Part shown: one piece after another, positions 2 to 47,979 of the stretch
Numbering within the stretch: the first letter of the stretch is position 1
Layout of the letters: the number at the start of each line of letters is the position of its first letter
Source: Synergistaceae bacterium
GTDB lineage: Bacteria > Synergistota > Synergistia > Synergistales > Aminobacteriaceae
Assembly: GCA_017446055.1 (NCBI GenBank)
Contig: JAFSRQ010000079.1
Coordinates: 13,881 to 77,880, forward strand
Direction of reading: 5' to 3'
DNA: 64,000 nucleotides
Position numbers and translations under genes: made by a program
The notes under the pieces: generated by a model
What the model was told of the DNA's origin: nothing
The model's input: only the letters and a program-made list of their open reading frames with translations
Databases searched by the model: none

Positions 2-829
2 TACCAGGAAGCACGCGACTTCCACGAGGGACTCGCCGCCGTGAAATCCGGGGATCGCTGGGGATATGTCGACTATCTCGGACGCATAGCGATTCCGTTT
101 GTCCACAGAGTCCCGGAAGCAGGCGATTTCTCGGAGGGCTTCGCTTTTGTCGGCGACCACTACATCGACAGCGAGGGACAGCCCGCATTCGTCCGAATTG
201 ACCCTGACACTGACGAGCGCACAGAACGGTTCTTCACCAACGGACTCCCATTCTCGCAGGGCATGGCCGCAGTACAGGTTGCGGGGCAGTGGGGGTATAT
301 CGACATGATGGGCAACTACTTAATCCCGCCGCAGTTCGAGAGAGCCGGGAGGTTTGTTGACGGAATCGCACCCGCCCGGAGAAATGGCCTGTGGGGGTAC
401 ATCGACATGCGCGGAAGGTGGGTTATTGAGCCGAAATTCACACGCGCCGGGGAATTTCACGAGGGACTCGCCGCAGTGTATATCCGGGGTCGCTGGGGCT
501 ACATCAACAAGGAAGGCAAGTACGCTATAAGGCCTCAGTACACAGAAGCAGGAGATTTCGCTTACGGTGTCGCTCCCGTCAGAACACGCACAACCTACAG
601 GGGCTGGGGCTACATCGGCCACTGGAACAATAAGGCAATCCCCAAACGCTACAACAACGCCGGGAATTTCGGAGACGGTCTCGCTCCTGTTACTGGTGAT
701 GCCCGCTGGGGGTATGTGAATGTCAGGGGTGAATGGGAGATTTCCGCCCAGTATGAGGACGCACGGACTTTCAGCGAAGGACTTGCGGCTGTTAGGGTCG
801 AGGACAAGTGGGGATATATCCGGCAGTGA
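2..829 (+). CDS. WG/KWG-repeat protein, 5'-truncated by window edge
   Basis: The frame is open from nt 2. About 7 consecutive ~35-aa units each carry [KR]WGY[IV] plus an F.EG[LF]A.V motif. Stop TGA at 827-829. Confidence 0.75.
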   Translation, partial: YQEARDFHEGLAAVKSGDRWGYVDYLGRIAIPFVHRVPEAGDFSEGFAFVGDHYIDSEGQPAFVRIDPDTDERTERFFTNGLPFSQGMAAVQVAGQWGYIDMMGNYLIPPQFERAGRFVDGIAPARRNGLWGYIDMRGRWVIEPKFTRAGEFHEGLAAVYIRGRWGYINKEGKYAIRPQYTEAGDFAYGVAPVRTRTTYRGWGYIGHWNNKAIPKRYNNAGNFGDGLAPVTGDARWGYVNVRGEWEISAQYEDARTFSEGLAAVRVEDKWGYIRQ

Positions 830-952
830 GGCTTGCGACATAGCCGGGGGCAAAGGGTCTGGAACGCATTAGCCCAACATTCGGCAGTGAGGCATGACCC
901 GGCGCAAAGGCTCTGGGACGCATTCACATACAACATCAGACAGTGAGATATA
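821..952. repeat. imperfect ~60-nt tandem repeat (about 2.2 copies) duplicating the stop-codon region of the WG-repeat gene
   Basis: cggcagtgagg...ggcaaagggtctggaacgcatt recurs at 821, 882 and partially at 940. Confidence 0.7.
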
Positions 953-955
953 ATT

Positions 956-1237
956 TTGCCGACAAAGGAGATGAGACTTATGGACGCAGTACTGGACAGG
1001 CCGAAAACATCATGGGTCAAGCCCACAAGGAAGCTGACTGAGGCGGAAATCGAGCAGCTCATAGAGAATTACGATTATGTTTATGATGAGGATGATGACA
1101 GCACAGCACTTGACCCCGTTTATGACGCTTACGGCAACCCGACAGAGTCAACAATACGCGCAATGTACGAGTCCCGTCATGGAATAGGTGAGGAAACAAC
1201 ACTTGATGAGCTTCTAGCTTGGGTGAACAGTCTCTGA
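956..1237 (+). CDS. putative antitoxin with a DinJ/RelB-like C-terminal toxin-binding segment
   Basis: The C-terminus NPTESTIRAMYESRHGIGEETTLDELLAWVNSL resembles the DinJ C-terminal toxin-binding tail. Its stop overlaps the ATG of the downstream YafQ-like ORF (TGATG at 1235-1239). No ribbon-helix-helix was recognised at the N-terminus. The true start is probably ATG 971 or 980 (AGGAG at 966-970). Confidence 0.5.
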   Translation: MPTKEMRLMDAVLDRPKTSWVKPTRKLTEAEIEQLIENYDYVYDEDDDSTALDPVYDAYGNPTESTIRAMYESRHGIGEETTLDELLAWVNSL

Positions 1238-1531: not shown

Positions 1532-1532
1532 C

Positions 1533-3288: not shown

Positions 3289-5865
3289 CTATATCATTCT
3301 GGCGTTACGGCTCTTCTCCTTGAGCCTGTGAAGTATCTTCAGTGCCTCCATCGGCGTAATGTTGTCCGTGTCAATCCCGGCAAGCTCCTCGACTACAGCA
3401 TCACTTTCCGGCGACAAAAGCATAATCTGCCGTCTCAGCGCAACCTGCGGCAATGGTGCGGGAATATCCTCCGTCCGCAGTCCGTCCTTCTCGAAAATCT
3501 CCAGAAGCTCAAACGATCTCCTCAGCACCACGTCAGGCAGTCCTGCAATCCTCGCGACCTCGATTCCGTATGACCTTCCCGCCGCCCCCCTCACAACCTG
3601 GTGAAGGAACATGATACCCTCTCTGCCTTCTGAGACCGTCATGCTGTAGTTCTTCACGCCGTCTAATCTCTCCTCAAGGCACGTCAATTCATGGTAGTGT
3701 GTCGCAAAAAGCACCCTCGAACGTGAAGCTCCCTGCAAGTATTCCAGTACAGCCCATGCTATGCTCATGCCGTCATATGTCGCAGTCCCGCGCCCTACCT
3801 CATCGAGAATGATTAGGCTTCTGTCGGTTACGTTGTTCAGGATATTGGCGGTCTCTAACATCTCTATCATGAATGTGCTTGACCCCCTCACCAAGTCATC
3901 CCTAGCTCCTATCCGGGTAAATACGCGGTCAACGAGTCCTATCCTTGCTGACTCCGCCGGTATCCACATTCCTGCCTGGGACATTATCACTATCAGCGCG
4001 GTCATACGAAGCCACGTTGATTTTCCGGCCATGTTCGGCCCGGTGAGGATTATCACGCGTCCGTCGGTGTCAATGTTCACGTCATTCGGGACAAAGGCGG
4101 CATCTTTCAGTTCACGCTCAATCACAGGATGACGGCCTGCCCTGATGTCTATCACGTCAGAGTCATCAACGACAGGACAGCAGTAATTCCCCGCTCGCGC
4201 AACCTCGGAGCATGACGCTGTGCAGTCCAGTATTCCCAGAAGGCGAGCCGTAAGCTGCAGCTCCTTGCTGTGTTCGAGGACGTGTGAGACTACAGCCCGG
4301 TACAGTTCCGACTCAATGCGTGAGATTTCAGCCTCAGCGTTCTTCATGCGTGCCTCGAAATTCTTCAGCTCTGGTGTAGTGTAGCGTTTTGCGTTGACGA
4401 GGGTCTGAGTCTGCCTGAAGTAATCCGGCTGATATGACAGTCCTGATTTCCCCGCCTCTAGGTAATAGCCGAAAGCGTTCGTGAAGCCTGCCTTGAGCTT
4501 GGGCGTATTGGTGGCCTGGCGTTCGCGCTCTAGATATTCCTTCAGCCACTCTTCACCCTTCTGTGAGATTTCGCGGACTGATGATAATTCCCCGCTGAAT
4601 GATGAGCGTATGACATCACCATTGCCCAACATGCGCGGTAGTCGTTCCTCTAATGCCCCCTCCAAGTATCCGCTCAACTCTGAGACATCCGGCAATGACT
4701 CCTGCAAGGCCTTCAACGGTTCATTGAGCGTTATAGCTTTCACCGCCGGGATTATACGCAGAGTGTCACGGATTGCTCCGAGGTCCAAAGGATTGCCAGT
4801 GCCGAGTGCCAGACGTGAGAGTGAGCGTTCTATGTCTCTTGTTGACGATAAGCAGTCCTGTAGCTGTGAGCATTCGCGGGGTGATGAGACTAACACGCCG
4901 ATGTATTCCTGACGCTGTGAGATTGCATGAATGTCCATCAATGGCCGCAGTATCCAGTCCTTGAGGGTGCGCCGTCCTGCGCTTGTCCTGCAACGGTCGA
5001 TTGACGCTAGGAGTGATACGCTAGTCCCAGAAGTCTCCGGGATAAGCTCAAGGTTTCTCTGTGCTGACGAGTCGAGGCTCATTCTGTCCTTCACCATGAG
5101 GGGGGCTAGCTTCAGCACGTCATTCAATGAGCTGAACTGAGTCGCTGTGAGATAGTCCAGTGCCGCCCAAGCCGGGCCGGTGCATAAATCCCCGTCAGCA
5201 ATCCCGAAGCCCTCAAGCCTTGAAGTGTGAAGTGCTGACTTGAGCCTGCCGGAAGCGTTCTCAGGCTTGAATGTCTCAGGTGATACAGGACGAAGGTTGT
5301 AGCCGTTCATGAAATCGGGAATGGTCTTGATGTTCGAGGGGTAAAGGATTTCGCCGGGTGTGAAGGCTGACAGCATAGCCTCCGCATCTCTCACGCTCAG
5401 AGTCCCGGCCTCAAGAAGCCCGGTGTTGACCGAAAGCAGAGCCATAGCAACGCGCCCCCTGACAGGCCAGACTGAAGCAAGGTGTGCTGACTCGGAGTTC
5501 TCATCGTCAGGAAGGTATGTACCCGGCGTAACAACACGAATCACCCTGCGCTCAACGATGCCTTTTGCGGACGGCTCACCAATCTGCTCACATATAGCTG
5601 CCCGGCAGCCTGCACGAATCAGCCGCGACAAGTACGAGTTCAGTGCATGATGAGGGATTCCGGCCATCGGGATTTTTTTCTCCGGGTCTCTTGCGGTCAA
5701 TGCTATGTTCAGAACGGAGGCGGCCTGCTTTGCGTCGTCAAAGAACATCTCGTAGAAGTCGCCCATCCTGAAGAGAAGCAATGCGTCAGGGTAATCTTCC
5801 TTGAAGGACTTGTACTGTTCAAGCCACGGGGTAATTTTCACGTCAGAAGGTATAACTTTGCTCAT
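3289..5865 (-). CDS. mutS: DNA mismatch repair protein MutS
   Basis: N-terminal TPWLEQY...FRMGDFYEMF mismatch-binding motif, Walker A GPNMAGKST, and DEVGRGT. Confidence 0.97.
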   Translation of the reverse strand: MSKVIPSDVKITPWLEQYKSFKEDYPDALLLFRMGDFYEMFFDDAKQAASVLNIALTARDPEKKIPMAGIPHHALNSYLSRLIRAGCRAAICEQIGEPSAKGIVERRVIRVVTPGTYLPDDENSESAHLASVWPVRGRVAMALLSVNTGLLEAGTLSVRDAEAMLSAFTPGEILYPSNIKTIPDFMNGYNLRPVSPETFKPENASGRLKSALHTSRLEGFGIADGDLCTGPAWAALDYLTATQFSSLNDVLKLAPLMVKDRMSLDSSAQRNLELIPETSGTSVSLLASIDRCRTSAGRRTLKDWILRPLMDIHAISQRQEYIGVLVSSPRECSQLQDCLSSTRDIERSLSRLALGTGNPLDLGAIRDTLRIIPAVKAITLNEPLKALQESLPDVSELSGYLEGALEERLPRMLGNGDVIRSSFSGELSSVREISQKGEEWLKEYLERERQATNTPKLKAGFTNAFGYYLEAGKSGLSYQPDYFRQTQTLVNAKRYTTPELKNFEARMKNAEAEISRIESELYRAVVSHVLEHSKELQLTARLLGILDCTASCSEVARAGNYCCPVVDDSDVIDIRAGRHPVIERELKDAAFVPNDVNIDTDGRVIILTGPNMAGKSTWLRMTALIVIMSQAGMWIPAESARIGLVDRVFTRIGARDDLVRGSSTFMIEMLETANILNNVTDRSLIILDEVGRGTATYDGMSIAWAVLEYLQGASRSRVLFATHYHELTCLEERLDGVKNYSMTVSEGREGIMFLHQVVRGAAGRSYGIEVARIAGLPDVVLRRSFELLEIFEKDGLRTEDIPAPLPQVALRRQIMLLSPESDAVVEELAGIDTDNITPMEALKILHRLKEKSRNARMI

Positions 5866-6581
5866 GATTGCCAGCTTTCAGAGTCGGATAAATTTTCGAG
5901 TGCGTGTAATATTTTAGCGTATAAGTCGGGGATGTCCTTTCTGAGTCCGGCTATGTAGTCGCGGATTCTCTGGCGTTCTGTGTGTCCGGCAAAAGGGCAG
6001 GGACTGGATATTACCGGGAGACTGAGCCGCTTCACCTCGTCAACAATTGCTGACTCTGTAGCAAGAACAAGCGGCCTGATTACTGTAACACCTGTGCGTG
6101 TCATCAAAACTTTCGGCTGGAAACTTTTCGCCCTCCCTGCGTGAAGGAGGTTCATGAAGAAAGTTTCTGCTGCGTCATCAAGAGTGTGGCCGAGTGCGAG
6201 CTTGTTATAGCCGTTGTGAGATGCCCACGAGCTGATTATTCCCCGCCTCATGTTAGCGCAGAATGAACACGGTGATTTCTCCTGCCTCGCGTTGATGATG
6301 CCGATGATGTCCTGTGCTATGACTGTGTACGGAATGCCGAGTGAGCCGCAGTAATCCTCAAGGGGGGAAGTGTCGAGTCCTGAGAGTTTCACGGTGAGTG
6401 CTGAGACTGAGAACTTGACCGGGCTTCGGTGCTGGAGGTCATGAAGGGCGTGAAGTAGAATGAGGCTGTCCTTTCCGCCGGAGAGGCCGACTAGTATTCT
6501 GTCCCCCCCGGAAATCATTTGCCACCGGGATATTGCTCTGCCTATCTTGCGCCTGAGTGAGTGATTTATCTGTGCATTCAT
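5862..6581 (-). CDS. ttcA: tRNA 2-thiocytidine biosynthesis protein TtcA family (PP-loop ATPase)
   Basis: SGGKDS PP-loop, CSFCANMRRG, LALGHTLDD. ATGA overlap with the mutS start. Confidence 0.85.
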   Translation of the reverse strand: MNAQINHSLRRKIGRAISRWQMISGGDRILVGLSGGKDSLILLHALHDLQHRSPVKFSVSALTVKLSGLDTSPLEDYCGSLGIPYTVIAQDIIGIINARQEKSPCSFCANMRRGIISSWASHNGYNKLALGHTLDDAAETFFMNLLHAGRAKSFQPKVLMTRTGVTVIRPLVLATESAIVDEVKRLSLPVISSPCPFAGHTERQRIRDYIAGLRKDIPDLYAKILHALENLSDSESWQS

Positions 6582-6820
6582 TTCTTGCTGATGATAACGT
6601 GTAAGTCAACAGGGAAAATTCCGAGTCTCAACGTGATTGCTGAGACTGAGAACTTGACCGGGCTTCGGTGCTGGAGGTCATGAAGAGCGTGAAGTAGAAT
6701 GAGGCTGTCCTTTCCGCCGGAGAGGCCGACTAGTATTCTGTCCCCCCCGGAAATCATCTGCCACTGTGATATTGCCCTGCCTATCTTGCGTCTGAGTGAG
6801 TGGTTTATCTGTGTGAGCAT
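6578..6820 (-). pseudogene. tandem remnant copy of the ttcA 5' end (80-aa leftover ORF)
   Basis: The first 61 aa are 58/61 identical to the TtcA N-terminus, including SGGKDS, after which the sequence diverges. Its stop overlaps the real ttcA start (ATGA at 6578-6581). Confidence 0.8.
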
Positions 6821-7065
6821 TTTTTGCGGTACATTATACGCCTCGTGAGTGTGATATAAATCCCGGCCATGAAGATAATGACGGAGCGGGGCAGTGTGCA
6901 GGGGGTATCAGGTGCAAACAGTGAAAGTGTCAGTGTGAGTATGCCAAGAGGCTGGTGAACTGCTGTTTTCCAGAGTGCTACATTGACAGGCATTAAGGGC
7001 TACAAGGGAGCAGGCAGGCCGTAACGGAATTTTGTGGACGCTTATGTTTCAGCGGTCATTGCGCG

Positions 7066-7106: not shown

Positions 7107-7110
7107 CACA

Positions 7111-8063: not shown

Positions 8064-9918
8064 GTATCACCGAAATCAATTGCACGTCAACAGGAGTAAC
8101 ACCCGAAATCCTCAAGGCATGTCCGAGCGACTCCGGCCTGTAACGCTTCAGCTTCTGGAGTGATTCAGCACGAAGTCCCTTCACGCTGTCATAGTCGAAA
8201 TCGTCAGGTATCCTCGCTCCGTCAAGATTCTTCATGCGGGCGGCGACTCTGTTCTCCCGCTCAAGATACCCGGTGTAGCGAAGCTCCGTCTCAACGTGTG
8301 ATTTCTCCTCGCGTGTGAGATTCAGCGGTGAGGGCGACAATCTTTCAGCAAGCTCATACGTTACCCCCCTGTGAGTCATGTATCCGGCAACTGTCATTGT
8401 CTCACTCAGAATTTCAGCGTCATATTCAGCGCAGAGGGACTCGGCTTCTGCTGACGGTGAAATTTTTGCTGACTTCAGACGCGCAATCTCTTCATCCTCA
8501 CGAGAGAACCTATCCTCAAGGAACGCCCAGCGGGAGTCGTCAATCAGTCCTGCCTTCCTGCCGTAACGTGATAGCCTGTGCGCCGCATTGTCCCAGCGTA
8601 ACAGTAATCTATGCTCACATCTCCCCGTAAGCATCCTGTAAGGCTCATCGGTGCTCTTGGTCGTGAGGTCGTCAACAAGAACACCCAGATAGCCCTCATC
8701 GCGTCCCAGTGTCAGAGGCTCTTCACCCTTCGCATACATGGCCGCGTTTATCCCCGCAAGCAATCCCTGAGCGGCGGCTTCCTCGTAGCCACTTGTCCCG
8801 TTGACCTGTCCAGCGCAGAATAGTCCGGGAATGCTCCTGAGTTCGAGAGAGTGCTTCAGCTGGGACGGGAGTATGTACGTGTACTCTATGCCGTAGCCGG
8901 GCCTGATGATTTTCGCGTGTTCACAGCCGGGCAATGAGCGCACCATTTCCGCCTGTACATCATAGGGGAGGCTGGTCGAGAAGTTCTGCACGTAGACTTC
9001 ATCATTTGACGGTGATACAGGCTCGAACACTATCGGGTGCGTTATGTGGTCAGGAAAACGTATGTACTTGTCCTCGATTGACGGGCAATAACGCGGGCCG
9101 TTCGCTGAAACATTACCAGTAACAAGAGGAGAGCGCGAGATATTCCGGGCAAGTATGGAGTAAGTCTCTTCGGTCGTCCGCGAAAACCAGCACGCATAAT
9201 CCGACTCATACACCTTCCCATGCCCCCACAAGTCGAAGCACAGAGGCTCAGGTTCCGACAGTTGCGGCTTCATCCCGGCTCGCGAAAAGTCTATCGTGTG
9301 AATGTTGAGACGGGGAGTCGTGTCCGTTCTCATTTTCCCGGTCTCAATGCCCAAGTCAGCAAGAGAGTCCGCAAGACGCTCCGAGTTCTGTTGACCCATA
9401 GGCCCGGAAGGGAACGAGATTTCCCCCATGAAGACGCGCCCGGCCATGTAGACACCTCCGCATATCACTACAGCCCTGGCACTGTAACATGAGCCATGAC
9501 GAGTCATAACGCCTGAGACCTTGCCGCCCTCCGTGAGAATTGACACTGCTTCGTCCTGGTGAATGTCCAGGTTTGGTGCTGACGTTAGGAGCTTCCTGTA
9601 GTACCTGCTGTACATGAACGGATCACACTGCGCCCTCAATGCCCGGACTGCCGCGCCCTTTGACGTGTTGAGCCAGCGTATCATGAGGGTAGAAGCGTCC
9701 GCCGCACGAGCCTGTTCGCCGCCCAGAGCAGAGACTTCACGCACAAGATGACCCTTTGCCGGGCCGCCTATTGACGGGTTGCAGGGCATCAGGGCTGTGT
9801 TGTCGATGTTGAGGTTCAGCATGAGGGTGCGAAGACAAAGCCGGGAGATTGCAAGTGCCGCCTCACATCCTGCATGGCCGCCGCCGATTACGATTGCGTC
9901 ATATGAGTCTTGGTACAC
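8023..9918 (-). CDS. mnmG: tRNA uridine 5-carboxymethylaminomethyl modification enzyme MnmG (GidA)
   Basis: N-terminal FAD motif YDAIVIGGGHAGCEAA and full-length GidA-like sequence. Confidence 0.95.
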   Translation of the reverse strand: MYQDSYDAIVIGGGHAGCEAALAISRLCLRTLMLNLNIDNTALMPCNPSIGGPAKGHLVREVSALGGEQARAADASTLMIRWLNTSKGAAVRALRAQCDPFMYSRYYRKLLTSAPNLDIHQDEAVSILTEGGKVSGVMTRHGSCYSARAVVICGGVYMAGRVFMGEISFPSGPMGQQNSERLADSLADLGIETGKMRTDTTPRLNIHTIDFSRAGMKPQLSEPEPLCFDLWGHGKVYESDYACWFSRTTEETYSILARNISRSPLVTGNVSANGPRYCPSIEDKYIRFPDHITHPIVFEPVSPSNDEVYVQNFSTSLPYDVQAEMVRSLPGCEHAKIIRPGYGIEYTYILPSQLKHSLELRSIPGLFCAGQVNGTSGYEEAAAQGLLAGINAAMYAKGEEPLTLGRDEGYLGVLVDDLTTKSTDEPYRMLTGRCEHRLLLRWDNAAHRLSRYGRKAGLIDDSRWAFLEDRFSREDEEIARLKSAKISPSAEAESLCAEYDAEILSETMTVAGYMTHRGVTYELAERLSPSPLNLTREEKSHVETELRYTGYLERENRVAARMKNLDGARIPDDFDYDSVKGLRAESLQKLKRYRPESLGHALRISGVTPVDVQLISVILARDERRKNDDRG

Positions 9919-36053: not shown

Positions 36054-36084
36054 GGTAATCCCTCCTGATGATATTTTCGGTTAG

Positions 36085-36480
36085 ACTTCTACTCGTCAAC
36101 ACACACAAGGGTGAAACGTTCTGTGAGTCGTCAGCAAGCCCTCCTGACACGTAACGCCCGCACTAGTGATTAGACTTCCATTCGTCAACAGCACAAGGGT
36201 GAAACGTTCTGTGAGTCATCGGCAAGCCCTTCTGACACGTAACGCCCGCACTAGTGATTAGACTTCCATTCGTTAACACACAAGGGTGAAACGTTCTGTG
36301 AGTCATCGGCAAACCACCCTGACACGTAACGCCCGCACTAGTGATTAGACCGCCATTCGCCAACAGCACAAAGATGAAACGTTCTGTGAGTCGCCAGCAA
36401 GCCCTCCTGACACGTAACGCCCGCACTAGTGATTAGACCGTCATTCGCCAACACACACAAAGGTGAAACGTCTTCCGCAA
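36085..36480. repeat. ~88-nt imperfect tandem array (about 4.5 copies) upstream of the coiled-coil gene
   Basis: gtgaaacg anchor at 36111, 36199, 36286, 36373 and 36463. Each unit fuses upstream DNA with fragments of codons ~16-50 of the adjacent CDS. Confidence 0.85.
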
Positions 36481-37688: not shown

Positions 37689-39392
37689 ATGTCGACGGCA
37701 CAGTTTCTCTACTCTTACGCGCGGCCTTACAGGGTGAAGATACTTCTTGCGGTGATATTCATGCTGGCTTCATCCGGGCTTAACACATTGCCTCCTCTGC
37801 TGTTCAAGTATGTGGTTGACGATGTACTAATCTCGCGCAACATATTCATCCTCAACGTGATATGTGTGTGTGTGATAGTGATATTCGGTCTCAAGGCTGT
37901 AACTATGTACCTTCAGCGTTACTGCATGAACGAGGCCGGGCAGGGCGTGGTTATGGACATCAGGAACGCACTCTATGACCACATGATGCGCATGAAGCTG
38001 GGGTATATATATTCATCGAGGACGGGCGACCTGATGAGCAGGATTACGGGTGATGCGGCGACATTGCAGAACATAGTAACGTCAACCTTCATCGATATGA
38101 TGTTCAACCTGATAACCTTTCTGGGTATGCTTGCGTTCATCATCTACATCAACTGGAAGCTGACCAGCCTTATAGTGATAGTGCTTCCGTTTGTGGGGCT
38201 TCTGCTGTCATTTGCCGGGAAAAAGCTCCGGGTAGCCGGGCATAACGTCCAGGAGCATTTAGCCGACATAACCGCAACGGCTCAGGAGGCATTCTCGGCG
38301 GTGAGGGTAGTGCGCTCATTCGCCAACGAGGACGCAGAGATGGAGCGTTTCCGTGAGGCAGGGCGGGGGAATTACGCGGCATTGCTTCAGGCGGTAAGCG
38401 TTCAGGGGATACTTGCGGGAGTGATTGAGGTCTTCCTGATTGTGGCACTGGCTGTAGTGTTCCGTGTTGGGGGAATGAGCGTGATTGACGGTGAGCTTAC
38501 ACCGGGGGAATTGATTTCCTTCACGGGATATATTGCGTTCATGGTACAGCCTATACGCAGCGTGATGAACCAGATGAGCTACATACAGACGGGCATAGCC
38601 AGCGCGGAACGTATACAGTCAATACTTGCAGTCCCGGTTGAGGAGGATACATCCGGCCATGAACATATCCCTGTAACAGGAGCTATAACTTTCCGCAATG
38701 TGTCATTCAGCTATGACGCTCAGGAGATATTGCACGGGGTAAGCCTTGAGGTTAATGCAGGCGGGAAAATCGCTATCGTAGGGCCGACGGGTTCAGGCAA
38801 GTCGACAATAGCCGACCTCATACCGCGTTTCTACGAGCCATCTTCGGGTGAAATCCTCATAGACGGGAGGAACATTCATGATTTCGGCCTGAAGGATTTG
38901 CGTCGGCAGATTGGGATTGTCCCGCAGGAATGTGTATTGATGCGCGGGAGTATTGCGTTCAACATTGCTTACGGCATGAGTGATATTGACATGGTGAAGG
39001 TGAGGCAGGCGGCGGAGATTGCTGACATAAGCGCGTTCATTGAGAGTTTGCCGGAAGGTTATGATACTGTTGTGGGCGAACGTGGCGTAACACTCTCAGG
39101 GGGTCAGCGTCAGAGGATAGCAATAGCCCGGGCAGTGATACGGGATCCTCGTATACTGATACTTGACGAGGCTACAAGCTCACTTGACACGGCATCGGAA
39201 CAGGCGGTGCAGAAAGCACTGAACCAGGCCATGAAGGGACGCACATCAATCATCATAGCCCACAGGTTAAGCACGATAAGGAACGCTGATATGATATACG
39301 TACTGAGTGAGGGGAAATTCATTGAGGCAGGGACACATGAACAGCTTTTGCTGACGGGGGGATTGTATGCTGACTTGTACGGCAATATGTGA
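37689..39392 (+). CDS. msbA: ABC transporter permease/ATPase, MsbA-like lipid A exporter
   Basis: Six-TM domain plus NBD with GPTGSGKST, LSGGQRQRIAIARA and ILILDEATS. LPS gene context. Confidence 0.8.
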   Translation: MSTAQFLYSYARPYRVKILLAVIFMLASSGLNTLPPLLFKYVVDDVLISRNIFILNVICVCVIVIFGLKAVTMYLQRYCMNEAGQGVVMDIRNALYDHMMRMKLGYIYSSRTGDLMSRITGDAATLQNIVTSTFIDMMFNLITFLGMLAFIIYINWKLTSLIVIVLPFVGLLLSFAGKKLRVAGHNVQEHLADITATAQEAFSAVRVVRSFANEDAEMERFREAGRGNYAALLQAVSVQGILAGVIEVFLIVALAVVFRVGGMSVIDGELTPGELISFTGYIAFMVQPIRSVMNQMSYIQTGIASAERIQSILAVPVEEDTSGHEHIPVTGAITFRNVSFSYDAQEILHGVSLEVNAGGKIAIVGPTGSGKSTIADLIPRFYEPSSGEILIDGRNIHDFGLKDLRRQIGIVPQECVLMRGSIAFNIAYGMSDIDMVKVRQAAEIADISAFIESLPEGYDTVVGERGVTLSGGQRQRIAIARAVIRDPRILILDEATSSLDTASEQAVQKALNQAMKGRTSIIIAHRLSTIRNADMIYVLSEGKFIEAGTHEQLLLTGGLYADLYGNM

Positions 39393-40008
39393 ATGCTACA
39401 TCAATTACGCAACACCGATTACCCGTATCATCATGGCCGCTACAGTCTCACACGCACTAATCTCAACAGGAGGACTACATGCTGACTTACACCGCAATAA
39501 CACCGATTACCCGTATCATCATGGCCGCAACACTCACACGCACTAATCTCAACAGGAGGAATATATGCTGACTTGTACGGCAATATGTGAACGCTGCAAC
39601 TACGTAACACCGATTACCCGCTTCATCATGGCCGCTACAGTCTCACACACACTAATCTCAATGGGAGGACTATATGCTGACTTACACCGCAATCTGTGAA
39701 CGCTGCAACTACGCAACACCGATTACCCGTGTCATCATGGCCGCTACACTCACACACACTAATCTCAATGGGAGGACTATATGCTGACTTACACCGCAAT
39801 CTGTGAACGCTGCAACTACGTAACACCGATTACCCGCTTCATCATGGCCGCTACACTCACACGGACAGAACAACGCGCTAATCTCAACAGGAGGACTATA
39901 TGCTGACTTATACGGCAATCTGTGAACACTACAACTACGCAACACCGATTACCCGTGTCATCATGGCCGCGACACTCTCACACGCGCTAATCTCAACAGG
40001 AGGACTAT
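39367..40008. repeat. six tandem imperfect copies (86-119 nt) of the lpxK translation-initiation region
   Basis: ATGCTGACTT at 39367, 39479, 39565, 39674, 39781 and 39900, before the real start at 40009. All but the first, which lies inside the msbA 3' end, are preceded by AGGAGGA-type or GGGAGGA RBS. Confidence 0.9.
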
Positions 40009-42207
40009 ATGCTGACTTACACCGCAGTCTATGAACGCTACATCAACTACGCAAAGGGCAGACGTAACAGCCTATTGCTTGATGTTATCCTCACACCATG
40101 CTCGTGGATAACCCGCGTCATCATGGCCGCAACTGACTTCCTCCACTCTCACGGCCTACTCAATGCCTCACTGCCTCCTGTCCCGGTAATCAGCGTAGGC
40201 AACCTCACTTACGGCGGCACCAACAAGACACCATTCACCATAATGCTCGCGGAATATGCACTCTCACGTGGGCTGAAAGCCGGAATAGTTACACGCGGCT
40301 ACATGGGCAGCAACAAGTCCCAGGACGCAATCATCATCACTAACGGCAATGTTCCCCGTGATATTGCAGGCGATGAGGCGGTCATGATTTCGCGCAAACT
40401 CCCTCATGTCCCGGTCGCTGTCTCTAAGCACAGGATTGACGGCGTTAATGCCCTTCGCGATTTGGGCGTTGAGCTGGTCATAGCTGATGATGCCTTCCAG
40501 CACAGAAACATGAAGCGTGATTGTGATATTGTTCTGGTTGACGCACTGTGTCCTTTCGGGAACGGCAAACTCACCCCTGCCGGAATTATGCGGGAGAATG
40601 TATCTGCCCTGCGCCGCGCTCACATGGTCGTCATCACTAAATCGTCAATGGTATCACCTGCCGCTCTCAGGAATATATATCACACACTCAGCAGGTACAC
40701 AGAGCCGGAAAATATATTCATGTCGGATATTTCTGCTGATGGCTGGAACTTCACAGAGCCTTCACCGGGGGCAAGAGTTTATGCGTTCTCTGCGACTGGA
40801 AGCCCTGAGACATTCACGCGCTCACTTGCCGACAGGGGATGTGTCATCACAGGCAGCACTGCATTCCGAGACCATCACAGATATACTCACGATGACATTC
40901 ACCAGCTCAATGAGAAGTCGACACAAACACAAGCACAGTACATCGTCTGCACGGAGAAAGACCTCGCCAACATGGACGGCATTTCACCCGGAGAGTTCGT
41001 GCTTCCTCTGGCAGTCCCCAAAATCAGAGTAGCTATCCATGAGCCTGAACGTTTTTACTCACACTTAGCTGGCGTTCTCAGGCCGGAAATAGTGATTGCC
41101 TCAAACGGTTACGGTGAGGACGCTATAGCCTCTGTGTTAGCCCGCAAGATGATTGCCGCTTATCCCCTGTCGAAAGTCTCAGCATTCCCCTTAGTCGGAA
41201 GCGGAGAAGCATTCATCAAGGCCGGGGTAAATATACTGTCAGCAAAATCCGTAACACCTTCAGCGGGCATCTTCAAGTACTCATTGCGTGAACTGTGGAA
41301 TGATTTGCGGGCCGGGCTTCTCGGTCAGGTTCGTGAACAGCTCAGGGACTGGCGCAGTGTCTCACGTAAGATACTGCCTCCTGTGTGTGTGGGTGATGTC
41401 TACCTTCTGGCTAATACTTTGTGGGGTTCAGGACTGCGGCCTGTTTTTGTTGCTACGGCTAAGACGGTGTATATCTCCGGGCATTGGAGGACTGAGAGAA
41501 TGATGATACGGAAATTCACTCTCAGGACTTGGACGAGGGACGAGCCTACAGCGTTGCAGATTGGTGATAAGGCTGTGTACTCAGGAAGTCCCATAATGGA
41601 TTTGCTTGGCGACAATGTATCAGCCTCAGGAGATGTGATACTGCTCCTGCCCGGAAGCCGTAAGTCAGCCGGGAGAAATGCGGCAATATTGCTGGGAGCT
41701 GCAGAAATCCTCTGTGAGCATGGGCATAAACTCTTCAGGATGGTGCTTGCTCCTACGGTAGATACTGCGTCATTCTTCAGGGAGTGTGAGTCTGTCGACT
41801 GGAAACATGAAGGTGATGCTCTCACTAAGTCGGGGGTAACGATAAGCCTAACCGCTGAGGAAATTTCGCGGGCAGCCATCGGGGGGAAATTACTCTTGGG
41901 CATGGGAGGGACGGCTAACCAGTTATGCGCGGGAATGGGTATTCCTGTAATCGCTCCTGATGACAAGGGCAAGAGGGTGCAGAAAAAGTTATTGGGCAAT
42001 GCTGAGATACTCACACACGCTTCATCTGCGGCTATGGCTGAATGTGCCTTGAGGGTTCTTGCTGACGAGGGGCTGTACGGCTTCATGAGTGATACGGGGC
42101 GCAGGAGGATGGGCAGACCTGGCGCGGGTGATGATGTGGTGCGTTATACTCGTGATGTGCTGGGCTGGGGGATTAGGGAGAAGGTTTACAGGATGCTGAC
42201 ACCGTAG
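40009..42207 (+). CDS. lpxK: tetraacyldisaccharide 4'-kinase LpxK fused to a lipid-A-disaccharide-synthase-related domain
   Basis: The N-terminal half carries VGNLTYGGTNKTP and VTRGY LpxK motifs. The C-terminal half (from ~aa 365) carries SNGYGEDAIA, LLPGSRKS and GGTANQLCAGMGIPVI, which are LpxB-related. Confidence 0.8.
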   Translation: MLTYTAVYERYINYAKGRRNSLLLDVILTPCSWITRVIMAATDFLHSHGLLNASLPPVPVISVGNLTYGGTNKTPFTIMLAEYALSRGLKAGIVTRGYMGSNKSQDAIIITNGNVPRDIAGDEAVMISRKLPHVPVAVSKHRIDGVNALRDLGVELVIADDAFQHRNMKRDCDIVLVDALCPFGNGKLTPAGIMRENVSALRRAHMVVITKSSMVSPAALRNIYHTLSRYTEPENIFMSDISADGWNFTEPSPGARVYAFSATGSPETFTRSLADRGCVITGSTAFRDHHRYTHDDIHQLNEKSTQTQAQYIVCTEKDLANMDGISPGEFVLPLAVPKIRVAIHEPERFYSHLAGVLRPEIVIASNGYGEDAIASVLARKMIAAYPLSKVSAFPLVGSGEAFIKAGVNILSAKSVTPSAGIFKYSLRELWNDLRAGLLGQVREQLRDWRSVSRKILPPVCVGDVYLLANTLWGSGLRPVFVATAKTVYISGHWRTERMMIRKFTLRTWTRDEPTALQIGDKAVYSGSPIMDLLGDNVSASGDVILLLPGSRKSAGRNAAILLGAAEILCEHGHKLFRMVLAPTVDTASFFRECESVDWKHEGDALTKSGVTISLTAEEISRAAIGGKLLLGMGGTANQLCAGMGIPVIAPDDKGKRVQKKLLGNAEILTHASSAAMAECALRVLADEGLYGFMSDTGRRRMGRPGAGDDVVRYTRDVLGWGIREKVYRMLTP

Positions 42208-42395
42208 GCCGCAAGCATTCTCCCCAGTGTACACAGAGGAAGACCCACAACGTTACAGTAATCGCCCTTTATCCCCTCTATCATCAATGAACCTATACCC
42301 TGCACTGCATACCCCCCGGCTTTGTCGTATGGCTCGCAGGTTTGGGTGTAGGCTTCTATCTCCCATTCGGACAACTCGCGGTAACAACTTCGAGC
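42186..42395 (-). pseudogene. tandem remnant copy of the maf 3' end
   Basis: The 62-aa ORF is 56/62 identical to Maf residues 128-189. Its end overlaps the lpxK 3' end convergently by 22 nt. Confidence 0.85.
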
Positions 42396-42401
42396 GTGTA
42401 T

Positions 42402-42971
42402 CTATATGAGACTGACCCCATAACCCGCAAGCATTCTCCCCAGTGTACACAAAGGAAGCCCCACAACGTTATAGTAATCGCCCTTTATGCCCTCTATCAT
42501 CAATGACCCTATACCCTGCACTGCATACCCCCCGGCTTTGTCGTATGGCTCGCAGGTTTGGGTGTAGGCTTCTATCTCGAGTTCGGACAACTCACGGAAC
42601 TTCACCAGCGTATGAACGTCAGCAATACTCACACGTTCACCGCAACTCACACACAGCCCCGTAACCACTTCATGCACTCTTCCTGAGAGCAGCCGCAGCA
42701 TCCTCACAGCGTCATCATGTCCTGAAGGCTTGCCGAGAATTTCTCCGCCGTCAGCAACTACTATAGTATCAGCGGCTATGACTGCATCATCAGGATATAC
42801 ACGTGAGCCTGCTTCAGCCTTGAGACGTGATAACCTCCTGCATAATTCTGCGGGACTTTCGCCGGGTAAATGCTCCTCGTTCACGTCAGGGTGATACACG
42901 GTGAAGTCAAGCCCTATGCTTTCGAGTAATGACTTCCTGCGCGGACTTCCTGAAGCTAGAATTATCTTCAT
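42402..42971 (-). CDS. maf: Maf-family nucleoside triphosphate pyrophosphatase
   Basis: ILASGSPRR start and KAGGYAVQG motif. Confidence 0.9.
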   Translation of the reverse strand: MKIILASGSPRRKSLLESIGLDFTVYHPDVNEEHLPGESPAELCRRLSRLKAEAGSRVYPDDAVIAADTIVVADGGEILGKPSGHDDAVRMLRLLSGRVHEVVTGLCVSCGERVSIADVHTLVKFRELSELEIEAYTQTCEPYDKAGGYAVQGIGSLMIEGIKGDYYNVVGLPLCTLGRMLAGYGVSLI

Positions 42972-43750: not shown

Positions 43751-45490
43751 CTAGAAAAACTCCTTCTCGAAGATATTATTGTTGTCTCTGGCTTTGACTG
43801 AGACTATTGGCATCACTACGGCGAATGAAGAGTTGCGCTTCCTGAGTACATCACGCACCCGCGTCTTTATCGTGCTGCGTATTGCGTCAGGATTAGCCCT
43901 CTTGAGGCCGGATAATTCCTGTACTGCCTGCTCACTTACTGCGTACAGCTCCTTGAAGATGTCTCTGCTGTCCTCCGAAATGAAAACGCCCTGTGTCTCT
44001 ATTGCCGGAGGGGCTAGCAAGTTCCCCCGGTCGTCTACTGCCACTGCCACCGCTATCACACCGTCCTCTGAGATTTCGCGGCGTTCCTTGAGGACTTCAG
44101 ACTTTATGCTTCCGGCGGCGTTACCGTCAACAATTACTGCCCCTGCCTGAACATGGCCGTGCTTCTTGGGGGGATTGTTGCGCGTGAATGTGAGAATATC
44201 GCCGTTGACCATCAGGAATATGTTGTGAGGATTTATGCCGACTTCCTGCGCTAACTGTGAGTGCCGGACAAGGTGCTTGTACTCGCCGTGAACAGGGACA
44301 AAATACTGAGGCCGCGTAAGGTTCAGCATTATCTTCAGCTCCTCGCTCGATGCATGGCCGGAGACGTGAATATTCCTGTCCTTCTCGTAGACCACCTCAC
44401 AGCCCTGCGCAAAGAGACGGTTAATCGTATTGTTGACGAGCTTCTCATTGCCCGGTATCACTGAGGCCAGAAGGAACACTACATCATGTTCACCAAGATC
44501 GATAGCTTTGTTCTCGCCCCGGCTCATAGTAACAAGCCCGGAAAAAGGCTCGCCCTGGCTCCCGGTCGTAACAATAACAAGCTGGTTGTCTGAATACTTC
44601 CAGATTTCCTCAACCTGAATAATCATCTTGCTGTCAATCTTCAGGTAACCAGTCTCACGCGCAAGCTCCGCGTTACGTATCATGCTCCGTCCGAGAAAGG
44701 CTATCTTCCTGTTGAAGCGTGATGCTACGTCTGCTACCTGCTGTATTCGGTGTACGTTGCTGGCGAATGAGGATATGATTATGCGCTTGGTTCTGTACGT
44801 CCTGAAGAGGGTATCCAGCGTTGACGATATTATCCGTTCTGACGGGGTGAAACCTTTGCGTTCTGCGTTGGTGCTGTCGGAACACAGTAACATTATGCCC
44901 TTGTCGCCCTCCTCGGCAAACGCTCCGTAATCCGTAACCCGTCCGTCAACTGGAGTGCTGTCGAGCTTGAAGTCCCCCGTGTGAACTATACGGCCTAAAG
45001 GTGTCTCGATACTCAGCGCAACACAGTCGGGGATTGAGTGTGCCACTGCGATAAATCTCACGGTGAAAGAGCCTATCTTGATGACATCTCCCGCTCTAAT
45101 CTCGCGCATATCGGGGCGGAACGTAGGCAGGTCATCCTGTAGCTTGTTGCGGATTAGTCCGAGGGTAAGCTGTGTGCCGTACAGGGGGACATTGAGACGG
45201 GGCAGGACGTAAGGCAGTCCGCCAACGTGGTCTTCATGGCCGTGCGTGATGATGATGGCAAGTATCTTGTCCCTGTTCTGCTCCAGGTACGATATATCCG
45301 GCACAATGTAATCTATTCCAGGCAATTCGCTGTCAGGGAACTTCAGCCCGGAGTCTATCACTATAATCTGGCCGTCATACTCGATGACATACATGTTCTT
45401 GCCGATTTCACCCAGTCCGCCGAGAGGGATAAAGCATAACTTTTCGCGGTCGAAGTCATTGCGCCGCCTGTGTGATTGGTTTCTGGTCAT
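43751..45490 (-). CDS. rnj: ribonuclease J
   Basis: Metallo-beta-lactamase motif ITHGHEDHVGG plus beta-CASP and a C-terminal domain. 579 aa. Confidence 0.93.
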   Translation of the reverse strand: MTRNQSHRRRNDFDREKLCFIPLGGLGEIGKNMYVIEYDGQIIVIDSGLKFPDSELPGIDYIVPDISYLEQNRDKILAIIITHGHEDHVGGLPYVLPRLNVPLYGTQLTLGLIRNKLQDDLPTFRPDMREIRAGDVIKIGSFTVRFIAVAHSIPDCVALSIETPLGRIVHTGDFKLDSTPVDGRVTDYGAFAEEGDKGIMLLCSDSTNAERKGFTPSERIISSTLDTLFRTYRTKRIIISSFASNVHRIQQVADVASRFNRKIAFLGRSMIRNAELARETGYLKIDSKMIIQVEEIWKYSDNQLVIVTTGSQGEPFSGLVTMSRGENKAIDLGEHDVVFLLASVIPGNEKLVNNTINRLFAQGCEVVYEKDRNIHVSGHASSEELKIMLNLTRPQYFVPVHGEYKHLVRHSQLAQEVGINPHNIFLMVNGDILTFTRNNPPKKHGHVQAGAVIVDGNAAGSIKSEVLKERREISEDGVIAVAVAVDDRGNLLAPPAIETQGVFISEDSRDIFKELYAVSEQAVQELSGLKRANPDAIRSTIKTRVRDVLRKRNSSFAVVMPIVSVKARDNNNIFEKEFF

Positions 45491-45625
45491 ACATTGCCTT
45501 CCTTTGCTGTGAATTTTGGTTCATATGTTGGATTAGGCAATATTATAGTACACGGGGGTGATTAGCGTCTGGTCATATATTGCTGTCCTTTGCGGTGATT
45601 TCGGCATCTCATGCTGTAGTATACG
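45479..45625. repeat. duplicated rnj start region (~87-nt unit, 2 copies, ~75-80% identity)
   Basis: tctggtcata(c/t)attgc..cctttgc.gtga recurs at 45483 and 45568. The second copy carries a pseudo-start atgaccaga. Confidence 0.6.
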
Positions 45626-47800
45626 CTAGAACAACTTTTCACCCATCGGCCTTTTACCGGGAGTGTAAACCTTCACATTAACCGCTGAAGTCCTGCCAGC
45701 CTCGTCAACCGCGCTCACTGTATGCTCGCCGTCATCAAGCGCATGGATGTATGACGATTTCCCCTGAGACATTCCGCAATATTCCCCGTCAACATACCAC
45801 CATATTCTTCCGTCAGTGCCCTCTGCCTTGAACGGTATAGCCCTCTGTGTGTCCAGCGGCGCGTAATAGTATGAGGCTCCCGGTATAGGGGATATTATGC
45901 TGAAGGATGAGTTTTTCCCGCCCGTTACGCTGAGTTCACGCGGCATGTTTACGGCTGACTTCACCCCGTGAATGTCGCAAGGCGTTGTGTGTGTTACGCC
46001 GTCTATAGCCCATTCGAGTTTTGCTGACGGACATAAAGCGGTAGGGGGCTTGCCTGATACTGTGCATACCCTCCGTGTGATGAGATTGCCGGGACGCTCA
46101 TACCACGGTGAATTGGGGAGCATTCGGTGTATCTTCACGGCTGTAGGTGCGGATATTCTTGCGCCTACGAGACCCTCCCACGACGCTCCTTCAGGATTTC
46201 CCGCCCACACGCAAACAGTGTAGCCCGGCCGCCATGAACACGCCCAAGCATCACGGAGGCCGTATGATGTCCCGGTCTTGAGGGATAACTTGCGTCCGCC
46301 CGAAAATGTCCCGTCATGCCTCAGTATGTCCCCGATAATCCAGCAGCCCGCAGAAGTCGCTAGCCTCTCACGCGAAACTGTCTCATCCGTCAGCACCTTC
46401 AAGCCCCGGTGTACTCCCTCTGAAGCAAGGAACGTATACGCCTCCAGCTGTTCCAGCAGAGTAACATCACACCCTCCCAGTATCAGAGAGTCGCCGTAAA
46501 ATTCTGCTGACTGCGTGAGATGCCTGTAGCCCGCCGACCTCATCAGAGACAATACACGGTCATTGCCTGAACGCCTCAGTACCCTTACCGCCGGGGCATT
46601 CAGTGACTCGTGAAGTGCCGTGCGCGCTGTTACCGCTCCTCGATAGGTCAGGTCGAAGTTCCTCGGTGCCCTCCCGGAGAATGCCGCTGAACTGTCAGCA
46701 AGAAGGGTTGACGGTGTGAGTATTCCCGCCTCAATAGCTGTGAGGTACGCAAAAGGTTTCAGGGTTGAACCGGGTGAACGCAAAGCCCTTCCGCAGTCCA
46801 CCCATGATGAAGGCTCTGTGCTGTAACCGAACCTTGCATTGCCGCACCACGCCACTATTCCGCCTGTACGGTTGTCCGTAATCCCTGCCGCTATTGTTAC
46901 GTTTGACGGGACATCGTTCAGTGCCTGGCCTATTATCCCCTCAAGTTTAGTCTGTATCTCCAGGTCAAGCGTAGTGTCATAGCGGGATGACTTGTGTTCG
47001 GGGTTCTGAGACAGTACCAGCTCCGAGAAGTGGAAAGCCCGTGAAGGCAGGGGGAATTTCCGTCTGGGCAGCTCCTCAAGCCTTGCGCGTGATGCCTCGT
47101 CATGTGTGAATACCTTTTTGCGCTCCATGAGGGATATGATTTCGTTGCGGCGGGTTATTGCGGCTTTGGGCTTGGTGTCAGGTCGGAAAAGTGCCGGGCC
47201 TTTCAGCATCCCAATCAGAAGACATGCCTCGCCCGGTGAAATCTGTGAGGCGGTCTTCCCGAAATATATCATGCTTGCCGCCTGTACTCCGCGTATATTT
47301 CCCCCGAATGGCGCAAGGTTGAGGTAGCACTCCAGTATTTGCGGCTTGGTGAGTACTCTCTCAATCTTCACGGCCATGATGAACTCGCGCAGTTTCGTGA
47401 GCAGGTTGCGCTTCCTGTGTTCACGTTCGGAGACAGATAAGCGGATTACCTGTGCTGTTATCGTTGATGCCCCTGATACCGTCTTCATGCGCAGGATGTC
47501 CTGAACTATTGCCCGGCCTAACGCTATAGGGTCGAGGCCGAAGTGCCGGTAAAATCTGCCGTCCTCAGCATTAACCGCCACAACTGGAAGCCACTTGCCC
47601 ATGTCGCTTAACGGTACGGGTATGTGCCACTCTGACGCAGGCGACAATCTCACGTGGTACAGGCGGCCTTCTGTGTCATAGAGTGCCGGAGAGCCGTCAA
47701 TTGTCGTTACCCGTTCGGGGCTGACTGTTACAGTAGCAAACACGAACGCGCACGGTGTCAGCAGCAGTAGCAGTAACAGGAGCATCAATACTTTCTTCAT
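45626..47800 (-). CDS. pbpC: bifunctional penicillin-binding protein, PBP1C-like
   Basis: GT51 motifs (EDGRFYRHFGLDP, GASTITAQ), transpeptidase SxxK (STLKP), and a C-terminal PBP1C-type domain. Confidence 0.85.
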   Translation of the reverse strand: MKKVLMLLLLLLLLTPCAFVFATVTVSPERVTTIDGSPALYDTEGRLYHVRLSPASEWHIPVPLSDMGKWLPVVAVNAEDGRFYRHFGLDPIALGRAIVQDILRMKTVSGASTITAQVIRLSVSEREHRKRNLLTKLREFIMAVKIERVLTKPQILECYLNLAPFGGNIRGVQAASMIYFGKTASQISPGEACLLIGMLKGPALFRPDTKPKAAITRRNEIISLMERKKVFTHDEASRARLEELPRRKFPLPSRAFHFSELVLSQNPEHKSSRYDTTLDLEIQTKLEGIIGQALNDVPSNVTIAAGITDNRTGGIVAWCGNARFGYSTEPSSWVDCGRALRSPGSTLKPFAYLTAIEAGILTPSTLLADSSAAFSGRAPRNFDLTYRGAVTARTALHESLNAPAVRVLRRSGNDRVLSLMRSAGYRHLTQSAEFYGDSLILGGCDVTLLEQLEAYTFLASEGVHRGLKVLTDETVSRERLATSAGCWIIGDILRHDGTFSGGRKLSLKTGTSYGLRDAWACSWRPGYTVCVWAGNPEGASWEGLVGARISAPTAVKIHRMLPNSPWYERPGNLITRRVCTVSGKPPTALCPSAKLEWAIDGVTHTTPCDIHGVKSAVNMPRELSVTGGKNSSFSIISPIPGASYYYAPLDTQRAIPFKAEGTDGRIWWYVDGEYCGMSQGKSSYIHALDDGEHTVSAVDEAGRTSAVNVKVYTPGKRPMGEKLF

Positions 47801-47979
47801 GACCTAGTGTTGAGGGCTATAACGTCAACGCTGATGTGCCGGGAAAAAGCATTAACCGCTACAACAGGTAGCCGCGAGCCGTCAATTGTCGTTACTCGTT
47901 CGGGGCTGACTGTTACAGTAGCAAACACGAACACGCACGGTGTCAGTAACAGTAGCAGGAGCATCAACGCCTTCTTCAT
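47797..47979 (-). pseudogene. tandem remnant of the pbpC 5' end (60-aa leftover ORF with signal peptide)
   Basis: MKKALMLLLLLLTPCVFVFATVTVSPERVTTIDGS matches the PBP N-terminus, followed by an internal deletion. ATGA overlaps at both ends (47976-47979 and 47797-47800). Confidence 0.8.

Follow-up and report, generated by a model that had tools for sequence, protein, structure and literature searches.

The DNA analysed here is a 64,000-nt stretch of a Synergistaceae bacterium (GenBank assembly GCA_017446055.1, contig JAFSRQ010000079.1, positions 13,881–77,880 of the forward strand), hereafter the window, and the features under study are short tandem duplications at the junctions between its protein-coding genes. 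The original prediction, made from the letters alone, listed 12 loci at which such a segment had been copied in place. All 12 are local tandem duplications, ten of them strongly supported by BLAST or Tandem Repeats Finder (TRF) and two weak but readable. When the window was searched with TRF, a repeat finder and self-BLAST (comparing the plus strand only), nearly all significant self-similarity in the 64 kb was local and direct. The loci, of which 11 lie between intact genes and one lies within a gene, are the following.

818–947, plus strand: 3' end of the WG-repeat gene (stop codon at 827–829) with downstream DNA; units of 61, 56 and 13 nt, read directly.
6384–6827, minus strand: 5' end of ttcA; period 239 nt, 92% identity over 205 nt.
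10317–10338, minus strand: 11 nt × 2, 100% identical, within the VanY-like gene (9924–10585); detected by TRF; frameshift.
14153–14711, minus strand: cdc48 stop/rluD start junction; period 245 nt, 93.5% identity.
16866–17163, minus strand: non-coding duplication directly downstream of the ROK stop, in the ROK–cdc48 spacer; period 188 nt, 83% identity.
20926–21096, minus strand: glmM stop/galU start, 70-nt unit; period 70 nt, 94% identity over 20957–21089.
27277–27615, minus strand: final 166 nt of dnaE with its stop codon, and about 7 nt further; period 173 nt, 94.6% identity.
35905–36471, minus strand: array of 88 nt × 4.4 (36081–36471) in the divergent spacer upstream of a 409-aa open reading frame (ORF; 34824–36053).
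39354–40054, plus strand: msbA stop/lpxK start; six remnant units of 112, 86, 109, 107, 119 and 109 nt, with the real lpxK start at 40009.
42187–42597, minus strand: 3' end of maf; period 216 nt, 93% identity.
45472–45621, minus strand: region upstream of rnj with the first ~25 nt of the gene; period 86 nt, 73% identity.
47691–48005, minus strand: Na/Pi-cotransporter stop/pbpC start; period 185 nt, 85% identity.

As had been claimed, the tandemly duplicated segments span gene ends, and their copies have since diverged, with internal deletions. Remnants of ttcA, rluD, cdc48, dnaE, lpxK, maf, pbpC, galU and rnj are identified. At ttcA (5862–6581) the functional copy occupies 6384–6588 and the remnant 6623–6827; the two share an identical run of 71 nt, and the remnant still matches the PP-loop family. 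Between glmM and galU, two remnant copies each contain a mini-ORF reading MTVK-stop, and the third copy is the functional one at galU. The rnj remnant likewise carries a mini-ORF (MTRR-stop), in a spacer of 135 nt here versus 54–66 nt in relatives. The source of the 88-nt array is a 5' coding segment of the gene for the 409-aa ORF (35905–35939 and adjacent sequence), and the spacer holding the array is 512 nt long versus 115 nt in one relative (L091, see below). The 818–947 repeat, which sits between the WG-repeat gene and a YafQ-type toxin–antitoxin pair, is under the TRF and BLAST thresholds because of its indels. The single frameshifting event inactivates the VanY-like gene, as predicted: deletion of one 11-nt copy restores a 216-aa VanY-like ORF, and the split gene is present in every assembly covering 10317–10338. 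The intactness of mutS and mutL is also confirmed.

At maf, the downstream copy extends into the convergent lpxK gene, covering its final 21 nt. This remnant (from 42402–42404 down to 42187, minus strand) is open and in frame with maf, the period of 216 nt being a multiple of 3, and read-through of the maf TAG stop would append about 72 residues duplicating the Maf C-terminus.

Tandem copies in an assembly might reflect stutter of the assembler, or strain haplotypes placed in tandem. All assemblies compared here are short-read metagenome assemblies. In other assemblies, scaffold gaps of exactly 100 N (L001 10665–10764, L096 6879–6978, L097 2708–2807 and L100 7124–7223) fall in the maf, ROK-downstream and cdc48/rluD repeat loci, where they mimic length polymorphism. 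Some length differences between assemblies are merely these gaps, and the apparent "+100 nt" polymorphisms, being runs of N, were discarded. The gaps at three repeat loci indicate that the loci are hard to assemble, which is not proof of unreality. Exact-protein look-ups retrieve contigs from more than 10 ruminant-gut metagenome samples and two assemblers; gap-free MEGAHIT contigs and independent scaffolds are 99.9–100% identical to the window straight across repeat loci, and independent assemblies from different samples agree base for base, novel joints included. In addition, the copies differ by 5–17%, enough for k-mer resolution, and several features described below are biological signatures: the copies sit at gene ends, they form chimeric ORFs that stay in frame, internal deletions have direct repeats at their edges, and middle copies are hybrids. 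An assembly artefact, which the original prediction had named as a possibility to exclude, is effectively excluded by this concordance and is extremely improbable. With the flanks reached in contigs of other assemblies, the genome covered amounts to about 81 kb.

The ancestral state of the junctions can be read in relatives, of which seven syntenic loci, together about 114 kb, represent about five species. These were reached through LpxK at 66–75% identity (L091/L092, L093 and L094/L095), through Cdc48 at 91% identity (L112 and L113/L114), and through RNase J at 84% identity (L011, the nearest GTDB representative, an uncultured Synergistales metagenome-assembled genome, MAG). In L091, msbA and lpxK meet in a single-copy junction with a 26-nt overlap, the very overlap that had been deduced from the window. 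The Na/Pi-cotransporter/pbpC junction is single-copy with a 4-nt overlap in L011, L091 and L093, and so is cdc48/rluD in L112 and L113. lpxK and maf are convergent in the relatives, with a 63-nt overlap (L093) or a 37-nt gap (L091). Overlapping genes have thus been split by duplication, as claimed, and the comparison with related genomes that had been proposed finds orthologous junctions that are compact, single-copy and nearly devoid of local repeats. The two copies at cdc48/rluD are 94% identical to each other and 65% identical to the relatives' orthologous junctions; copies that are closer to each other than to relatives indicate that the duplications arose in this lineage after its split from the sampled relatives.

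The relatives' ~114 kb hold one comparable intergenic duplication in total, a pair of diverged tandem copies upstream of cdc48 in L113, which comes from samples resembling those of the window (9308–9790; period ~356 nt, 83% identity). From this case, the duplication tendency may exist in the wider clade at a lower level. In some related Synergistaceae (P0218, P0221 and P0235), Cdc48 and RluD are called as one protein of about 1010 aa (AAA and PseudoU_synth_2 domains); the junction with the 4-nt overlap has apparently turned into a fusion there, or been misread as one. LpxK of the window (40009–42207, plus strand) has about 370 fused C-terminal residues that match no Pfam family, and LpxK with this C-terminal extension (~730 aa) is common to Synergistaceae, including Fretibacterium.

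The density of duplications sets the window apart. By the same method, its 64 kb hold 11 loci, whereas 1.33 Mb drawn from 80 other genomes averages 0.34 for an equal length. TRF coverage, computed with the settings of PMC3287509, is 3.0% of the window, 0.02% of the 114 kb of close relatives and 0.18% of distant loci; the copies defined by BLAST occupy about 3.9 kb of the window (6%).

Strains that are at least 98.4% identical differ in copy number at four junction loci and one intragenic locus (N-gap differences excluded), and the differences are directly shown at three of the junctions. Three-copy variants exist for the 245-nt unit (L096 and L098) and for the 185-nt unit (L001). The middle copy of these variants is an exact hybrid, with its left part as in the downstream copy and its right part as in the upstream copy, which indicates unequal homologous crossing-over. 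In the msbA–lpxK array, strains differ by one mosaic unit, with the remaining units identical and other strains having one unit fewer. At the 88-nt array, L001 is about 93 nt longer, suggesting one extra unit from the alignment lengths rather than from inspection of the units; the intragenic locus is a 24-nt repeat in an rpn-family gene (see below). Mismatches between copies are clustered, leaving identical runs of 46–71 nt that include synonymous sites (P = 0.013–0.021 at three loci), which points to gene conversion.

Signatures of slippage also remain. In the cdc48-derived remnant, the 9-nt direct repeat CTCTTGCGG lies on either side of a 69-nt deletion, and the endpoints of the Na/Pi-cotransporter/pbpC duplication share an imperfect repeat (12 of 18 positions); direct repeats of this kind are typical of slipped mispairing. 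Most duplication endpoints are not readable for microhomology, the edges of the copies being too diverged. The initial duplication of each segment would have arisen where short, imperfect direct repeats mispaired by slippage or recombined illegitimately. Recombination between the copies follows, unequal homologous crossing-over altering copy number and yielding arrays of up to six units, and gene conversion would even out their interiors.

Membership in a known class of repeat element, such as the template and variable repeats of a diversity-generating retroelement (DGR), a CRISPR array, or repetitive extragenic palindromes (REPs), miniature inverted-repeat transposable elements (MITEs) or insertion sequences (ISs), is scarcely credible. 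The likeness is superficial, consisting of a diverged repeat beside a gene 3' end, as in a DGR, and of regular arrays. The 87 mismatches between copies comprise 46 transitions and 41 transversions with no adenine bias, an ordinary spectrum that rules out a DGR, and no reverse transcriptase domain is present in the scanned ORFs. CRISPR is rejected because units run head to tail without unique spacers and the scanned ORFs contain no cas domains. Dispersed repeats (IS, MITE, and REP or bacterial interspersed mosaic elements) are rejected because each unit is unique to its locus and matches its own flanking genes (in plus-strand self-BLAST; inverted copies were not checked). The original statement that every unit is locally derived and is none of IS, MITE, REP or CRISPR accordingly holds, self-BLAST finding no dispersed copies in the window. 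Among the scanned ORFs, no transposase or reverse transcriptase domain was found except for the Rpn-family gene, and Rfam and tRNA scans of the repeats gave no matches. Simple-sequence contingency loci, the phase-variable switches that turn genes on and off, have units of 1–9 nt in a promoter or ORF, and the units here are 56–245 nt; the 11 nt × 2 event is not counted as one because it is identical in every covering assembly.

The repeats instead have the properties of variable number tandem repeats (VNTRs): periods of 56–245 nt arranged head to tail, identities of 73–95%, strain-variable copy number, and a position between genes together with gene fragments. Literature searches found no direct precedent for junction duplications in bacteria. 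The tandem repeats of Ehrlichia ruminantium are, in the studies of Collins et al. from 2005 and Frutos et al. from 2006, reportedly associated with truncated gene fragments, and slipped-strand mispairing is said to have been invoked. The novelty in kind that had been suggested for the window is not sustained, as the actively variable, mostly non-coding repeats of E. ruminantium are a described analogue (PMC3287509, PMC7343930). These make up 6.3% of the genome by TRF, with a mean period of 139 nt and an internal match of 91.6%, compared with 0.38% in E. coli (PMC3287509 Table 4), and represent the highest bacterial tandem-repeat content reported as of 2012 (PMC3287509). They are mostly non-coding in a genome with a coding density of about 65% (PMC7343930), and isolates differ from one another in copy number, which is also variable inside a single isolate (PMC3287509). 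The window resembles E. ruminantium in units of about 100–300 nt, a match of about 90%, variable copy number and a repeat load of about 6% by BLAST or 3.0% by TRF, against 6.3%, a likeness in load that holds for the window only, with its dense part at 0.8–48 kb and no junction duplication across the adjoining 34 kb. Unlike E. ruminantium, an obligate intracellular alphaproteobacterium, the organism here belongs to gut Synergistaceae with tightly packed relatives; the duplications themselves make the spacers by splitting overlapping genes, and the remnants are in-frame relay ORFs.

Two further systems are comparable in part. Wolbachia VNTR-105 and VNTR-141 are intergenic arrays of 105–141-nt units with internal deletions and polymorphic copy number, for which slippage and concerted evolution have been proposed (PMC3287509). 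Long-period intergenic arrays, unit deletions and copy number that varies between close strains are common to both, but the Wolbachia units are 98–99% identical, form hairpins, occur at few loci per genome and are not described as derived from flanking gene ends. In the Staphylococcus aureus lpl genes, the unit of unequal crossing-over consists of the 3' part of one ORF, the spacer and the 5' part of the next ORF (PMC2568036). This layout is the same as here, but the lpl case involves whole paralogous genes of a family cluster and the units of the window are partial duplications of unrelated neighbours.

Why the duplications are confined to gene junctions can be addressed statistically. The window with its extra copies collapsed is 96.3% coding, and a random duplication of the observed sizes would not lie wholly within a gene in 8–22% of cases per event (joint P 3.5e-10 for all 11). 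The junction-only placement is thus best read, on these statistics, as survivorship, resulting from purifying selection in DNA that is about 96% coding. A duplication would be harmless only when it spans a gene end and leaves one intact copy of each gene, or when it inserts a small, frame-preserving segment into a protein that tolerates it. Repeats of the latter kind exist, so that the original count of a single intragenic event was incomplete: at least six further in-frame repeats occur in three genes.

22502–22585, minus strand: Rpn-family nuclease gene, in-frame 24 nt × 3.5 (TRF); strain-variable, 298 aa versus 306 aa.
31032–31413, minus strand: dnaX, in-frame 21-nt and 27-nt tandem repeats (TRF).
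54137–56389, plus strand: 2410-aa Cthe_2159-family protein, in-frame 39-, 30- and 21/42/63-nt repeats (TRF and repeat finder).

The period is a multiple of 3 at all six intragenic repeat loci (24, 21, 27, 39, 30 and 21/42/63 nt), compared with 1 of the 11 junction loci. In-frame intragenic periods, together with a single out-of-frame pseudogene, point to a high duplication rate filtered by purifying selection. The original prediction could assign the pattern to no described mechanism or class, a point that is not supported: hybrid copies show unequal crossing-over, one remnant deletion and one duplication endpoint have short direct repeats, and purifying selection would yield the junction-only placement. 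The gene with the 24-nt repeat (22385–23281, minus strand) encodes an Rpn-family recombination-promoting nuclease/putative transposase (TIGR01784, 98.7 bits) and lies in the middle of the cluster of duplications.

Overlapping genes can be translationally coupled by termination–reinitiation at ATGA or GTGA. The ancestral junctions are of this type, and the leftover ORFs reproduce 4-nt overlaps on both sides, in agreement with the overlaps originally listed. The ORF at 14495–14247 (minus strand; 82 aa) joins rluD codons 1–33 in frame to the cdc48 C-terminus, has the 69-nt deletion and shows GTGA overlaps at both ends. The ORF at 47979–47797 (minus strand; 60 aa) is a pbpC N-terminus with deletions of 96 and 12 nt and ATGA overlaps at both ends. 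The ORF at 6820–6578 (minus strand; 80 aa) is a ttcA N-terminus whose TGA overlaps the ttcA ATG (ATGA); at this start the overlap exists only after duplication. In the msbA–lpxK array each unit contains GGAGG, an ATG and an ORF of 30–59 aa ending just past the next ATG, which gives a chain of six (39367–40034). In all four cases (14247–14495, 47797–47979, 6578–6820 and 39367–40034), the remnant begins at or overlaps the upstream stop, ends at or overlaps the downstream start, and has its frame kept.

The periods at the 4-nt-overlap junctions (245 and 185 nt) and at the ttcA start (239 nt) are all 2 mod 3, which brings the stop of the upstream gene into frame. The clear remnant-specific deletions, polarised with the relatives' proteins, are 96, 12, 69, 39 and 9 nt long; at least five of five are multiples of 3 (P ~0.004), and indels in the non-coding arrays are 1–5 nt. 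A second filter may thus operate at co-directional coupled junctions, where translation of the leftover ORF would have to bridge the distance between the upstream stop and a stop overlapping the downstream start; in-frame chimeric remnants and multiple-of-3 deletions would follow from such a filter. From the reading frames we infer selection for ribosome passage, which would avoid polarity on rluD, pbpC and lpxK. Unlike ordinary coupled genes, these junctions have an inserted relay ORF of 60–82 aa, or a chain of six, through which coupling would pass. AGGAGG precedes the functional lpxK and galU starts in the gene-proximal copies, and the site embedded in msbA is GGGGGG, suggesting that the ribosome-binding site was optimised either because the genes had separated or in step with their separation. 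Through the duplications, overlapping genes become separated, intergenic DNA and small ORFs are created, and the gene-proximal copy is free to gain a canonical Shine-Dalgarno sequence.

Overall, the pattern is probably the product of short tandem segmental duplications (~60–300 nt) in one Synergistaceae lineage, followed by recombination between copies and then by selective filtering, with no new element involved. Several observations weigh against this explanation. The evidence comes from short-read assemblies, with scaffold gaps that coincide elsewhere with three repeat loci, and from the ~81 kb of genome covered. The events are also clustered, with duplications at 11 of the ~36 junctions in 0.8–48 kb and at 0 of the ~33 in the adjoining 34 kb, which consists of 48–64 kb of the window and 8.5 kb beyond each window end (L104 12390–21140 and L108 13258–21725). 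The claim that duplications occur throughout the window therefore stands for 0.8–48 kb, where they are dense, and fails for 48–64 kb and the 8.5-kb flanks, where no junction is duplicated. This clustering counts against survivorship alone because survivorship does not predict regional clustering, and the model supplies no cause for an elevated duplication rate in the lineage. In addition, at five loci (6384–6827, 14153–14598, 27277–27615, 42187–42597 and 47701–47964), third codon positions hold an excess of the differences between copies (14:9:38). Functional and remnant copies are separated by 33.7 synonymous and 20.3 non-synonymous differences, which gives a ratio of non-synonymous to synonymous differences per site (pN/pS) of 0.19. 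Remnants in free decay should reach at least 0.5, so that a simple picture of neutral remnants is incomplete. Synonymous divergence is also rather uniform across loci (0.15–0.23), and very young copies are absent, none being more than 95% identical; this absence may be ascertainment bias, in that short-read assemblers collapse near-identical copies. AT-biased decay of the remnants was tested for and not seen. Candidate causes of the low pN/pS are constraint on translated remnants, import of alleles that had already diverged, and selection on the functional copy that reaches the remnant indirectly through gene conversion.

The clustering raises the alternative of a mechanism targeted to junctions or to the region, in which breaks or fork stalling at gene ends are repaired with duplication. 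Such damage would stem from collisions of transcription/translation with replication, or from a nuclease that acts in cis, for example the Rpn-family protein (22385–23281). Rpn proteins promote RecA-independent recombination in E. coli, and the events form a strong cluster that reaches ~25 kb from the rpn-family gene in each direction, the flanking 34 kb being free of them; a link of this gene to the high duplication rate is speculation. The duplication endpoints vary from 7 to >250 nt into genes, which argues against a mechanism targeted to start or stop codons, and they share no sequence motif. Repeats that keep the frame are present deep within genes as well, as far along as 56 kb, and the survivorship model already accounts for the placement. 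Targeting is therefore unlikely. No DnaA-box cluster or other obvious landmark that explains the clustering was found in the window; a link to a replication origin, prompted by dnaN, recF and gidA in the window, was rejected, there being no DnaA-box cluster and a GC skew that tracks gene strand.

The low pN/pS and the uniform synonymous divergence (0.15–0.23) are what orthologous alleles would show, and one copy per locus might thus be a diverged allele of a sister lineage, placed by homology-facilitated illegitimate recombination. Strain mosaicism is in keeping with such import, L001 being 99.96% identical on one side and 98.4–99.2% on the other. However, no lineage of the required divergence is found among 5.8 billion proteins, in which matches fall from 100% to 75% for LpxK and from 99.9% to 92% for Cdc48. 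The remnants are also changed at residues conserved in relatives (e.g., R-to-S in the cdc48 part), the mismatches are clustered rather than uniform, and arrays of 4–6 units are hard to build in this way, which makes imported alleles very unlikely. Scans of JGI metagenomes for a novel joint and for LpxK relatives gave nothing useful.

Selection might also have favoured the duplications directly. Positive selection would then free the downstream ribosome-binding site from the upstream coding sequence, and short-ORF arrays of variable copy number would tune expression of, for example, lpxK, pbpC and rluD. The restriction of the canonical AGGAGG to gene-proximal copies, the copy-number variation among near-identical strains at four junction loci and one intragenic locus, the preserved reading frames of the remnants and their low pN/pS are consistent with such tuning, and 8–10 assemblies contain no collapsed single-copy allele. 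However, the 3'-end duplicates of dnaE and maf and the non-coding units after the ROK and WG-repeat genes have no plausible regulatory logic, two remnants contain early stops, and in the relatives overlapping junctions are functional. Frame preservation is predicted equally well by purifying selection that removes polar effects, and adaptive separation of the genes is accordingly considered rather unlikely. A broader version, in which junction duplication leaves no mere neutral debris but is a systematic evolutionary route that splits overlapping, coupled genes and makes intergenic DNA, ribosome-binding sites and chains of small translated relay ORFs under selection, perhaps driven by a recombination activity of regional reach such as that of the Rpn-family nuclease, draws on the frame-preserving deletions and the pN/pS of 0.19 as support for selection, and is likewise rather unlikely beside duplication followed by recombination and filtering.

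If the pattern holds genome-wide, this one uncultured Synergistaceae bacterium of the rumen would rival the repeat load of E. ruminantium in a compact genome of a non-intracellular lineage. The junctions of the window would provide a natural series of intermediates for the separation of overlapping, translationally coupled genes, a process that is usually only modelled. These intermediates also bear on the birth of intergenic DNA and small ORFs in bacteria, and on how selection for frame and coupling decides which structural mutations survive. In practical terms, such loci break or gap short-read assemblies and yield spurious small gene calls in the annotation of MAGs.

Outside the duplicated region, prfB (57060–58163, plus strand) contains a programmed +1 frameshift site, CTT TGA C, at 57125–57131. 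The ORF from the ATG at 57060 stops at this site, and the PCRF and RF-1 domains go on in the +1 frame.

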